Shown here piece by piece: positions 5,423-11,795 of a DNA stretch of 11,795 nt; position 1 is the first letter of the stretch, and every line of letters begins with the position of its first letter. A model generated the notes under the pieces. It was not told the origin of the DNA. It did not search any database and saw nothing but the letters and a program-made list of their open reading frames with translations. A program made the translations under genes and the position numbers. Location of the stretch: the NCBI GenBank assembly GCA_964421955.1, contig CAYQYU010000019.1:1-11795 (forward strand), read 5' to 3'. The DNA is from an uncultured archaeon (GTDB lineage Archaea; Nanohalarchaeota; Nanosalinia; Nanosalinales; Nanosalinaceae).

Positions 5423-5566
5423 GCCTCCATGGCTCAGTCTGGCTAGAGCGGCCCCCTTGTAAACCTCAAGTTCTCCAGGAGGAGAACGAGGACCCAGGAG
5501 CGAACGTGGGCGACTTCGCAACGACAAGCTAGGGGCAGGCCGTGGGTTCAAATCCCACTGGGGGCT
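5423..5566 (+). tRNA. tRNA-Thr(TGT) with a 69-nt intron at canonical position 37/38 (5462-5530)
   Basis: Acceptor GCCTCCA/TGGGGGC, D stem GCTC/GAGC, anticodon stem GCCCC/GGGGC, loop CT-TGT-A|A, T arm GTGGG-TTCAAAT-CCCAC and discriminator T. Splice motif: CTTG (5456-5459) pairs with intron CAAG (5525-5528), with a 3-nt bulge CT|A. CCA is not encoded. Confidence 0.93.
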
Positions 5567-5571
5567 TTCTA

Positions 5572-6000
5572 CTAGTAGACGCAGTTGTCCAGGATCTCTA
5601 CCTCGCAGTCCGCACTCACCTCTACTTCCCTGGATCTACATTTCTCCTCAACATTGCACGCTTTGATCTCCACCCTGTAATCATTTCCGCCCTCTGCCTC
5701 GAATGAAACCGGGCTCGCGTAATAGTCATCGCTGTTGGAATCCCATAAACCTTTTCTCGCGACTCTCCGGTCCTGCGAGTAAACCTCAAACCATACCTCT
5801 TCAATCGAGAATTCGGAATCAACCACCCTGGCACCCACATAAACGTCGTCACCGTTGCCTATGTCGTCCGGTACAACCTCTACTTTTTCTATCTCCAGAC
5901 CTCTATCGACCCCGGAACTATTCTGGGCCGCTGCAGAAGTTAGAAAAGCTGTGAGAGTTAAGATACCTAGAACCGCCAGCCTGAAACCATGTTCTTTCAT
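5572..6000 (-). CDS. Secreted or surface protein, probable beta-sandwich with Cys pairs
   Basis: ATG 6000 gives the signal peptide MKEHGFRLAVLGILTLTAFLTSAAA, followed by alternating beta-strand patterns and four C-terminal Cys. Confidence 0.78.
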   Translation of the reverse strand: MKEHGFRLAVLGILTLTAFLTSAAAQNSSGVDRGLEIEKVEVVPDDIGNGDDVYVGARVVDSEFSIEEVWFEVYSQDRRVARKGLWDSNSDDYYASPVSFEAEGGNDYRVEIKACNVEEKCRSREVEVSADCEVEILDNCVY

Positions 6001-6133
6001 GTATACAATCCACTGAAATCTGCTTTTTAAATTTGCTGCGCTCAACCTCAATAAAAATAGATTTAAGCATTTTATATGATTTTAAAAGTTTTATTAAATC
6101 TGCTAAACTTTTCTTAGAATATTTGGAATATTT

Positions 6134-6949
6134 TTAGTCCTTTGTACCCCAGTCAAACTTGTTGCGGCGCCCATCTTGTCCCTTGGGAAGAGTATTAGTC
6201 TTGATATAGTGTGATGCTATGAGAGCCGACTCCACATCTTTCAGGTTGGAATCCAGAGCCGCCACTGAGAACCTGGCCGAAGATCCAAACTTTTTCTCAT
6301 GCTTCAACAGCCTGTTCGCAACGTTGGTGCTCTTGCCGATGTAGGCCAGAGGGGGCGCAAAATAGGGGAACCATATCCTGTAGACAACGCGGGAGTCATC
6401 GATCTCGCTCCGCTGATCCAATCTACGGGGCCCGGTCCAGTCAAGCCCCATCCATTCCTTTGAGGTGATCTCTTGAGCACCCCAGTCCAAGTCTTCCAGA
6501 ACCGCCTCGGTTCCCGGATCACTTGAGAGCTGCCTGTCCAGGTTGACAGTCGGGCTTCTACCAGTCTGCCGGATGTGTGTCGCAAGCATCACGTTCTCAA
6601 GTCCTATCCGGTCAATTTCCGAGCGAGCGATGTTCGGGTTGGCGTACGAGAACTCGAACCTGCCCCCGGAATCGCCGAGCTCCCAGAGATGGCTGGTTGA
6701 ACCGCCGCTTCCCGGTTTCTCGTCTGCGTTCAGATCGTTCGCGAAATGGACTATTCTCTCCTTAAGCTTCCTTCCTGTCTGTCCGACGTACTCAAGACCC
6801 GGACGGGAGGTCTGCTTTATACGGAAGAAGCCAGGTGTCTCCGGGACCTGTGAAATTCTGTTCGATCCTGGGTTGAGTATCGCCCAGTCCGACCAGTCGA
6901 ATCCCAGCCAGGAGCTGCTTTCGACATCTTCCTCATTGACAGGTCGCAT
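6134..6949 (-). CDS. GIY-YIG nuclease family protein with two tandem domains
   Basis: Domain 1: 'PGFFRIK...LEYVGQT...LKERI...GLE'. Domain 2: 'VVYRIW...LAYIGKS...VANRLLKH...DVE'. Each is preceded by W(L/M)G(F/L)DW(S/T). Confidence 0.82.
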   Translation of the reverse strand: MRPVNEEDVESSSWLGFDWSDWAILNPGSNRISQVPETPGFFRIKQTSRPGLEYVGQTGRKLKERIVHFANDLNADEKPGSGGSTSHLWELGDSGGRFEFSYANPNIARSEIDRIGLENVMLATHIRQTGRSPTVNLDRQLSSDPGTEAVLEDLDWGAQEITSKEWMGLDWTGPRRLDQRSEIDDSRVVYRIWFPYFAPPLAYIGKSTNVANRLLKHEKKFGSSARFSVAALDSNLKDVESALIASHYIKTNTLPKGQDGRRNKFDWGTKD

Positions 6950-10667: not shown

Positions 10668-10735
10668 CAGCACAAAATCTGGAGCGCTACCTTAAAAATC
10701 TCTCCGAAACCGATTCCTGTCCAGAATCGACAGCG

Positions 10736-10750
10736 TTTATAATTGTTACA
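10736..10750 (+). promoter_or_regulatory. tRNA-Pro promoter: TATA box plus TGTTACA motif
   Basis: TTTATAA at 10736-10742 and TGTTACA at 10744-10750. Confidence 0.62.
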
Positions 10751-10834
10751 AGCAGACGAAATAATACCAGCTATTCTCGACCTACGGTCGAGCACCGTCG
10801 AAGACTGTGATGGTGATCAAACTTCCAGAAGTTT

Positions 10835-10907
10835 GGCGGGATGGTGTAGTGGACTATCATCGGGCGTTTGGGACGCCTGGACCCCGGTTCAAATCCGGGT
10901 CCTGCCA
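10835..10907 (+). tRNA. tRNA-Pro(TGG)
   Basis: Acceptor GGCGGGA/TCCTGCC, anticodon arm GGGCG-TT-TGG-GA-CGCCT, T arm CCCGG-TTCAAAT-CCGGG and discriminator A. Confidence 0.96.
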
Positions 10908-10916
10908 ATTGCATAT
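10895..10916 (+). repeat. 22-bp direct repeat, copy 1 (attL-like; tRNA-Pro 3' end plus 9 nt)
   Basis: CCGGGTCCTGCCAATTGCATAT, identical to 11771-11792. Confidence 0.95.
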
Positions 10917-10999
10917 CTCCAGATTTTAGAGAAATCCCGAAACTGCCAATGGAAATTTCTTGAGTTAATTTGTTTAAAATTCGACTCGAAATTTGAATT

Positions 11000-11758
11000 A
11001 TGGTTGCGAGAAAAGAATTAGTTTCGTGGTTGAACAACGAACTAAATGCAGAACATTTTAATGAGATTGAAGATGCAGACTTCAACGGTGCAATGGTGAA
11101 GGCATCAGATGAAATAGATAAAATTGGTTTATGCACCAATACGACTTTTGAGAATATTGAATCGGCTTCCGAACTTGAATGTGACCTGGTAATATCTCAT
11201 CATGGGGGATGGAAGAGATTTGATATGGATTTGTTTGAAGACAAGAAACAGAAAATGAAGAATAGTAACTTGACCTGGTATATAGCTCACCAGACCCTTG
11301 ACTGTGCGGACGAATACGGCGTATGTGTAGCTCTGGCAAATAAACTTGGTATAGAAGTAGATGGAGAATATTGTGAACTCCAAGGAGGTCCGCACGGAAG
11401 ATACGGACATTTAGAAGTCTCAAAGAAAGAATTCATGGAAAAGCTGGAAGAAATAGAACCGGATTATGATGTAGTTGGAGAAATAGGAGATATAGAGAAC
11501 CAAAAAATAGGTATAGTAGGCGGAGGCGGCGGAGCATTCGGCGAAATAGTGAAAGAAACAACAGAAATTGGATGTGAGGTATTCATCACAGGAAACACCA
11601 TGTTTGCCAACGAAATCTACGCATATGAAAAAGGATTGACAATGATAGTTCTCGAAGAGACATCAAGCGAGAAATGGGGAGTCTATGCCTTGGGGGACAA
11701 ACTGGAAGAAGAATTCCCAGAAATTGAGACTCACAGAATCAAAGAAATAAACTGGTAA
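11000..11758 (+). CDS. Nif3/YbgI (DUF34) dinuclear metal-centre family protein, divergent
   Basis: 'NG..V', 'DLVISHHG', 'YIAHQTLD', 'IGIVGGGGG', 'FITG' and 'TSSEKWGV' match the Nif3 pattern. TTTAAAA at 10973-10979 suggests a leaderless start. Confidence 0.9.
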   Translation: MVARKELVSWLNNELNAEHFNEIEDADFNGAMVKASDEIDKIGLCTNTTFENIESASELECDLVISHHGGWKRFDMDLFEDKKQKMKNSNLTWYIAHQTLDCADEYGVCVALANKLGIEVDGEYCELQGGPHGRYGHLEVSKKEFMEKLEEIEPDYDVVGEIGDIENQKIGIVGGGGGAFGEIVKETTEIGCEVFITGNTMFANEIYAYEKGLTMIVLEETSSEKWGVYALGDKLEEEFPEIETHRIKEINW

Positions 11759-11770
11759 ACCCAAGATAGG

Positions 11771-11792
11771 CCGGGTCCTGCCAATTGCATAT
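11771..11792 (+). repeat. 22-bp direct repeat, copy 2 (attR-like)
   Basis: CCGGGTCCTGCCAATTGCATAT, 12 nt after the nif3 stop codon. Confidence 0.95.
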
Positions 11793-11795
11793 ACC

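Follow-up and report, generated by a model that had tools for sequence, protein, structure and literature searches.

At one end of the DNA analysed here, a tRNA-Pro gene is followed by a single gene of the NIF3/DUF34 family (nif3), which lies between two copies of a short direct repeat. The window is the whole stretch of 11,795 nt and corresponds to the entire contig C19 of its source genome, G000, a nanohaloarchaeal assembly of 27 contigs and 0.92 Mb that is rated 98.8% complete. Nanohaloarchaea are host-dependent, relying on haloarchaea, and their genomes measure about 1 Mb; the gain and loss of their accessory genes are poorly understood. A sequence-only reading of the locus had proposed that the 876-bp segment carrying nif3 is an integrase-free cassette, mobilised in trans and perhaps the first unit of an integron-like array. 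A cassette site used across the family would give a concrete and searchable mechanism for the flexible gene pool of these archaea.

The tRNA-Pro(TGG) gene occupies positions 10835-10907 (Rfam RF00005, 50.7 bits; the ARAGORN call is 10834-10908) and, like all of the features described for this segment, is on the forward strand. The first copy of the 22-bp repeat (10895-10916) starts directly behind the T loop and takes in the final 13 nt of tRNA-Pro and 9 nt more, exactly as had been claimed; it holds a left half-site, a central palindrome and 5 nt past the palindrome. In the second copy (11771-11792), a tRNA-like left half-site that belongs to the cassette (11771-11781) is followed by the palindrome (11782-11787) and by the first bases of the right half of the next unit. 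The two copies are identical, directly oriented and spaced by 876 bp, and they are the sole direct repeat of at least 20 nt with 100% identity among the 15 repeat families of the window. A pattern search of the whole G000 genome returned two exact matches to the 22-mer, both on C19, and one with 2 mismatches, on contig C14; the reversed 22-mer, used as a control, gave 0 matches in the same genome.

The unit bounded by these sites (10909-11784) holds nif3 only (11000-11758; 252 aa, about 40% GC). The nif3 product matches PF01784 (DUF34_NIF3) with an E value of 8.9e-30 and 104.6 bits against a cut-off of 23.4, its residues 4-248 covering profile positions 3-251 of 256, which places it within this family. 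The GC content over the nif3 region is 0.40-0.41, compared with approximately 0.50 for C19. The non-coding stretch from tRNA-Pro to nif3 measures 92 nt, of which 83 nt separate copy 1 from the gene, and the nif3 stop codon lies 12 nt before copy 2; everything that had been stated as fact about this AT-rich gene and its packaging holds. An A/T-rich, TATA-box-like stretch (10973-10979), situated about 24 nt 5' of the nif3 start codon, is a candidate promoter that would belong to the cassette and give a leaderless mRNA. The final 3 nt of the contig (11793-11795) match site variants with the same start in three other genomes (G010, G063 and G064), so that a second full site probably begins with them. 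The shortened left boundary of copy 2 is also found in G064:C23 and G047:C31.

The tRNA-Pro island and its borders

Contig C19 stops 3 nt past copy 2, and the sequence-only reading had named an assembly artefact at the contig end as a possible undoing of its proposal. Two independent Logan contigs pass through this point. A contig of run X1 (record 8, 1597 nt) aligns with its positions 1-899 to 10897-11795 and continues for about 698 nt past the window, and a contig of run X2 (record 16, 812 nt) aligns with its positions 1-573 to 11223-11795 and continues for about 239 nt. The two runs come from one study, and either may be the source sample. Because the contigs of both runs traverse copy 2, this copy is real DNA with sequence behind it, and an artefact is ruled out. 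Site variants that start like 11793-11795 also occur in the same metagenomes. The continuation past copy 2 is absent from all 27 contigs of G000, and an exact search for the 39-nt window end in the JGI metagenome contigs gave 0 matches. Overlaps of 55 nt join five pairs of G000 contig ends, with neither C19 nor C14 among them. Many of the G000 contig ends have AT-rich stretches, frequently behind a tRNA gene, a pattern that fits variable islands that break assemblies.

The search for more copies of the repeat, which had been suggested as a check, led to contig C14. At 1.6 kb from the end of C14, there is a 28-nt copy of the tRNA-Pro 3' end (22998-25) plus five more bases, and a partial site lies nine bases upstream of it. 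Beyond the partial site, the DNA is AT-rich and carries a NUDIX gene and an open reading frame (ORF) of 177 aa, and on the other side of the copy the GC content is normal. An empty module of 42 nt (L003, reverse strand, approximately 1466-1508) lies between two sites on this contig. In G010, the genes on one side of tRNA-Pro match those of C19 and the genes on the other side match those of C14, with a single AT-rich cassette and further genes separating tRNA-Pro from the C14-matching genes. This synteny indicates that C19 and the reverse complement of C14 are the two borders of one tRNA-Pro island. The nif3 unit is the first of this larger AT-rich island, at least one further unit follows it, and the interior of the island is missing from the bin. 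An intact tRNA-Pro is thus accompanied by displaced copies of its 3' part, at 11771-11792 and on C14, as expected of a tRNA-targeted island. The outer end of the island on C14 would comprise the NUDIX gene, the 177-aa ORF, the 42-nt empty module and the 28-nt tRNA-end copy. With the third copy at the far end of the island, the synteny and the arrays found in relatives, the idea that nif3 is the first unit of a tRNA-anchored array is upheld, but the array is not a canonical integron.

The summed contig depth over 10872-10938 was 95-372 in runs X1-X4, against about 2-10 on either side. This peak over the tRNA end and the site shows that the site is present in high copy in the community, with many alternative continuations appearing as loose ends.

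The conserved site and the units between its copies

The full conserved site is approximately 65 nt long. The 22-bp repeat that had been described does mark a real boundary of the recombination-site type, but 22 bp fall short of the functional repeat, whose centre is a 6-bp palindrome 1 base past the tRNA end and not the tRNA 3' end as such. Its core at the tRNA is a dyad-symmetric stretch of 36 bp (10891-10926), made up of outer 8-nt inverted arms and a central 6-bp palindrome. The arms (10891-10898 and 10919-10926) are complementary at 7 of 8 positions and lie 20 nt apart, and the palindrome (10906-10911) sits exactly at the dyad, its first two bases being the final two of the tRNA gene. This arm layout is repeated in the 26 aligned sites (alignment columns 16-23 against 44-51). 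The left arm of the first site is the last 17 nt of tRNA-Pro, and that of the internal sites is a cassette-borne imitation. The right part of the site (10912-10948) is a conserved stretch with an imperfect hairpin (10919-10939) and a second box resembling the tRNA 3' end (10932-10948), and it would travel with the nif3 cargo.

A small-RNA reading of the motif was considered and dropped. Searches of Rfam at E<=0.1 returned no family except the two tRNAs, RNAalifold gave no consensus structure for the aligned sites, and covariation in the hairpin was weak, with 75.5% of cells paired against 72.1% after shuffling and 4 of 8 pairs changed on both sides. The site reads as a protein-bound DNA site, not as RNA. 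We infer that crossover takes place in the region of the 36-bp core, and the exchange point would lie in or beside the central palindrome, because homology breaks there in two aligned pairs of units. In at least six genomes, the tRNA-like left arm and the palindrome are separated by an inserted module of about 52 nt that contains two small hairpins and a further copy of six bases of the tRNA end; examples are L022 (G010) at approximately 12895-12970, L058 at approximately 937-1010 and L055 at approximately 10925-10997.

The 45 nt after tRNA-Pro were matched in 17 of the 50 genomes of the family, representing 11 of its 21 genera, at 72-98% identity (BLAST), with up to 8 matches in one genome; a DNA search revealed no match among the site-bearing genera for the host DNA flanking the tRNA. 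A strict site pattern gave 24 matches in 14 of the 70 genomes of the order, every one of them in this family, and its reversed control gave 0. Among 185,579 species genomes (one genome per species), 49 stretches matched, 17 of which had the full site context, the other 32 being bare chance matches. Sixteen of these 17 were titled Nanohaloarchaea, Nanohalobium or 'uncultured archaeon'. The remaining one (L102), a 2.3-kb contig filed under Candidatus Paceibacteria, is probably a mis-binned nanohaloarchaeal contig. A total of 26 distinct sites could be aligned over 67 nt with a mean column identity of 75%, the conserved 45-nt part being free of indels. No viral carrier of the site was found in IMG/VR: an exact 16-mer gave 11 matches there, and 0 of the 11 had the site context, so all were due to chance.

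The intervals between neighbouring same-strand sites were counted in 27 non-redundant loci, in which ORFs were listed mechanically. There were 22 such intervals, of which 19 were 521-2068 bp long, with a median of 876 bp, the exact size of the window unit, and 3 were empty and only 42-93 nt long. Empty modules of this kind were observed between consecutive sites on C14 of G000, in L036 and in L055 (10901-10994). Each of the 19 longer units holds one or two ORFs, and the units probably carry their own promoters. According to Pfam, their cargo includes NIF3, CYTH, an AhpC/TSA-like protein, a pair of HEPN and nucleotidyltransferase genes, NUDIX and RDD, and secreted acidic proteins are also among it. 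Arrays exist away from any tRNA gene as well: on G064:C23, three units of about 640 bp form an array behind a ribonucleotide reductase gene, and in G009 the sites lie at 87-89 kb and the tRNA-Pro gene at 789 kb. In L020 (G016), on the reverse strand at 10726-10837, beyond tRNA-Pro and a HEPN/nucleotidyltransferase pair, we observed a copy of tRNA-Pro positions 23-59 followed by a 53-nt insert and then by the tRNA 3' end and a variant site; farther on are an ORF of 177 aa and two small ORFs of 101 and 77 aa, which are RelE-like by eye only.

An all-against-all comparison of the cargo of 20 units revealed that three genus pairs share cargo, at 78-90% nucleotide identity. An acidic secreted protein is common to G064 and G047 and partly to G052, a 159-aa protein is common to G046 and G064, and G048 and G054 share 505 nt at 90% identity, approximately 40% of each unit. 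In two aligned pairs, homology spans one site, the cargo and the next site and then stops. Of each site, the left half accompanies the cargo upstream of it and the right half the cargo downstream, and the neighbouring units on the left differ; the pair with the 159-aa protein also keeps a composite right junction. With the exchange point in or beside the palindrome, circularisation of a unit would yield a circle that has exactly one complete site.

The nif3 gene itself was found in 5 of the 50 family genomes, in one of them weakly (E 7e-4). In G047, a second gene comes after nif3, followed by the same shortened site as window copy 2. The nearest nif3 relatives in metagenomes, at 79% amino acid identity, reside on contigs of 38% GC with co-directional neighbours and no site, and they share with the window the ORF alone and no larger element.

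The anatomy of the site, its conservation, the arrays and the recurrence of cargo across genera, site-bounded in two aligned cases, are direct observations. We consider it probable, with some reserve, that the 876-bp segment is an integrase-less gene cassette in a functionally integron-like array anchored at tRNA-Pro. Under this explanation, the 3' end of tRNA-Pro(TGG) would be where site-specific recombination, of the kind performed by tyrosine recombinases, built the island, and a cassette would be made up of one or two cargo genes with a promoter of their own, preceded by a right half-site and followed by a left one. Insertion beside the tRNA would keep the tRNA intact and shift older units outward; given such a model, nif3 would be the youngest and most recently added unit because it is proximal to the tRNA. 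The recurrence of gene-sized units with identical boundaries suggests that the unit itself is what moves. We also infer that the recombinase is supplied in trans, and it would come from a visiting element or from a unit with an integrase at another place in the island or the genome.

A wider proposal is more tentative, and we would rate its chances as somewhat less than even. Nanohaloarchaea may own a gene-capture platform in which a tyrosine recombinase acting in trans inserts and shuffles cassettes, each with one or two genes and a promoter of its own, at a 36-bp dyad core mimicking the tRNA-Pro 3' end, producing arrays at tRNA-Pro and at secondary sites and exchanging cassettes between genera. 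Such a platform would be an independently arisen functional analogue of integrons in DPANN archaea. If this is true, it would represent a second, independent array-forming cassette system besides integrons, testable via the 36-bp site and a few candidate integrases. No account of gene-sized units bounded by such sites in Nanohaloarchaea turned up in the literature search; the supplements on tycheposons and nanohaloarchaeal viruses, which were outside this search, might list integrase-less units.

The recombinase and the competing explanations

Four matches to the integrase profile PF00589 were found in G000, on C7, C6 and C2, and there was none on C19 or C14, whose ends are the parts of the island covered by this search. 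The description 'integrase-free' is accordingly correct for the 876-bp unit, for C19 and for C14, but it cannot be extended to the island interior that is missing from the bin. In another genome, an integrase does adjoin the site: contig G047:C26 (L060, 3085-4302) encodes a 405-aa integrase with a C-terminal zinc ribbon, the stop codon of which lies 8 nt before a degenerate site, and two further site-bounded units come after it. A copy of this integrase with 97% protein identity and 90% DNA identity was observed in a different genus, on G004:C16 (L081, 10045-11262); its homology ends a few codons short of the stop, at the point where G047 has the beginning of the attachment (att) site, and no site follows. 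The presence of 97%-identical integrases in two genera is a sign of recent transfer between them. On G064:C37, an integrase of another clade comes after a one-gene unit at tRNA-Pro, and integrases of this type in G044 sit at other tRNAs with their own upstream motifs.

The closest relative of the G047:C26 integrase in G000 is encoded on C6, at 45% identity by tblastn and 49% in another search. At this locus (C6 61863-63989, L005), we observed a tRNA-Gly(TCC) gene, an opposite-strand gene of the RDD family and a 17-nt copy of the tRNA-Gly 3' end, after which come a 429-aa zinc-ribbon integrase and the end of the contig. The layout of tRNA, one gene, repeat and integrase parallels the window, with another tRNA and another repeat. 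The source of the enzyme acting on the tRNA-Pro site may be a unit in the island interior, visiting elements or a host protein of the Xer type.

Several observations weigh against the cassette explanation. First, the C6 integrase is located at tRNA-Gly with a different repeat, and after the homologues of the G047:C26 and G064:C37 integrases had been mapped, no integrase could be assigned to the site. Homologues of the G047:C26 integrase (E<=1e-20) are present in 9 of the 17 site-bearing genomes and in 9 of the 33 others, a weak association among genomes that are not independent. G009, a single contig with sites, contains a lone PF00589 match at a distance of more than 450 kb from them; in G010 the single match falls below the cut-off, and G062 gave no match. 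Second, the largest ORF is antisense to the site in 14 of the 19 units and on the same strand in 5, unlike the arrangement in integron cassettes. Third, some sites are degenerate and the nif3 gene of G047 is 5'-truncated with an in-frame stop, both of which fit decay. Fourth, the contigs of the four runs X1-X4, an assembly product that drops rare forms, contained no circle junction, empty site or other joint; the empty alleles, the 876-bp circles and the mobilisation in trans that the sequence-only reading had envisaged were not observed in them. One loose end of X1 after 10912 reads into the host flank of C14, which is compatible both with the C14 junction and with an empty tRNA-Pro site.

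The serious rival is the decay of larger elements. In this scenario, integrase-bearing elements of several kb would have integrated serially at tRNA-Pro, and deletions would have left att-flanked stumps resembling cis-mobilizable elements (CIMEs), which would be immobile or would be moved only in cis with a functional neighbour. The scenario has precedents in the literature: tandem integration and integrase loss are known in archaea (PMC8371274), the islands of Prochlorococcus show serial integrations split by partial tRNAs together with scattered remnants (10.1101/2020.12.28.424599), and the CIME route has been defined (PMC5704250). It also agrees with the integrase-bearing units that adjoin small units, with the degenerate sites, the 42-93-nt empty modules and the nif3 pseudogene. 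The unit 10909-11784 resembles a CIME in that both of its att sites are kept while integration and transfer genes are absent; no gene remnants are present in it. However, the units are regularly gene-sized, with 19 of 22 intervals falling between 521 and 2068 bp. A tblastn search using five integrases, that of G047:C26 and the four of G000, against 67 loci and the G000 contigs produced matches at integrase genes only. In addition, the same unit occurs with the same boundaries in two genus pairs, and the homology of nif3 to its non-cassette relatives corresponds exactly to the ORF. We regard decay as unlikely, yet as an explanation that retains real weight. Were the units merely decay products, the finding would extend the tRNA-anchored accretion islands of Prochlorococcus and streptococci to DPANN archaea.

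The same cassettes could instead be moved by a chromosomal Xer-type recombinase of the host, in the manner of integrative mobile elements exploiting Xer (IMEX elements) or of pdif modules. The dyad symmetry of the core and the existence of several site-bearing genomes with one or no clear PF00589 match (G009, G010 and G062) are consistent with this mover. Nevertheless, archaeal dif sites have 11-nt inverted arms around a 6-nt spacer (PMC8371274), whereas here 20 nt separate two arms of 8 nt; the two sites that bound a unit are in direct and not in inverted orientation; and the site occurs in only 17 of the 50 family genomes, whereas an Xer recombinase should be universal. An Xer-driven origin therefore appears improbable to us.

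It is far less probable still that the locus is a canonical integron or a cluster of attC sites lacking an integron integrase (CALIN), as reported in Archaea. Short conserved sites separating single genes do give the locus an array-like appearance, but there is no integrase beside the anchor and no PF00589 match on C19 or C14, the site keeps one conserved sequence, a tRNA end included, for which RNAalifold found no fold, unlike a structure-defined site of the attC type, and the cargo is mostly antisense to the site. The words 'nanohaloarchae' and 'tRNA' are absent from the main text of the archaeal integron preprint (10.1101/2022.02.06.479319). Finally, a chance repeat or a contig-end artefact, to which the end of the contig 3 nt past copy 2 might point, is refuted for practical purposes, given that the repeat is the only exact one of at least 20 nt in the window, that its reversed control gave 0 matches, that contigs of two runs traverse copy 2 and that the site is conserved across genera.

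Elsewhere in the window, there is a second tRNA gene at 5423-5566 (Rfam tRNA, 49.8 bits), which ARAGORN, with introns allowed, calls as an intron-containing tRNA-Thr(TGT). Just 3' of it (5800-6400), the GC content falls to 0.405 in a stretch with two ORFs, one of 159 aa and one of 271 aa, the latter giving a weak GIY-YIG match. The region may be another small insertion; no duplicated 3' end of this second tRNA was found nearby. On C1 and C14 of G000, copies of tRNA 3' ends are located 46-163 nt downstream of tRNA-Met, tRNA-Lys(CTT), tRNA-Ser(TGA) and tRNA-Ser(CGA), the two tRNA-Ser genes having one downstream duplicate in common. These copies may be traces left behind by integration and excision, or they may be modules without cargo.

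Comparison with known systems

The pdif modules of Acinetobacter plasmids have 28-bp XerC/D sites in inverted orientation, and their recombinase is encoded elsewhere. They resemble the units described here in that one or few genes are bounded by short recombinase sites; the units here differ in having direct repeats, in being chromosomal and in being linked to a tRNA. In dif-like sites, two 11-nt inverted arms enclose a 6-nt spacer, an architecture that the core at tRNA-Pro does not share.

Among elements of halophilic archaea, those of the SNJ2 type are comparable in their hosts, in their tyrosine integrase and in a core that is the 3' end of a tRNA (PMC5861418). They also have conserved flanking arms and an att site near the 3' end of int, as in G047:C26. 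SNJ2 differs in being a provirus with the accessory Orf2 and Orf3 and in having a 14-bp core in tRNA-Met (PMC5861418), and the integrases found here are zinc-ribbon proteins of 405-429 aa.

CIMEs, together with the site-specific accretion that they undergo with integrative and conjugative elements (ICEs) and integrative and mobilizable elements (IMEs), share with the tRNA-Pro island the retention of attL and attR and the tandem arrangement at a tRNA 3' end. By definition, they are att-flanked decay products of larger elements that lack integration genes and are mobilised in cis (PMC5704250). The units here, unlike CIMEs as portrayed there, are uniformly gene-sized and recur with identical boundaries.

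The tycheposon islands of Prochlorococcus are likewise anchored at tRNAs, grow by repeated integration and have partial tRNA copies between their units, and they too belong to the streamlined genome of a small-celled microbe and carry niche-related or accessory cargo. A tycheposon is several kb in length and encodes a tyrosine (or serine) recombinase of its own, usually together with a replication module (10.1101/2020.12.28.424599). In contrast, the units here measure 0.5-2 kb and have no mobility gene, the one in the window being a single NIF3 gene, their host is an archaeon, and the repeat extends into a conserved arm.

With respect to integrons, the anchor here is a tRNA 3' end and not an attI site beside intI, and the site is a fixed sequence of approximately 65 nt with a dyad core and not a structure-defined attC. 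Screening with the PF00589 profile, which does not address the extra domain of IntI, revealed no IntI on C19 or C14, and no site of the attC type, with variable sequence and a conserved single-strand fold, was seen. The cargo here is mostly antisense and probably has its own promoters, whereas integron cassettes are mostly co-oriented and promoterless. The likeness lies in the organisation. In integron cassettes and CALINs, as in the units at tRNA-Pro, gene-sized units without an integrase stand in tandem at one anchor, one site is split over both ends of the unit, and many arrays have no recombinase nearby (10.1101/2022.02.06.479319).

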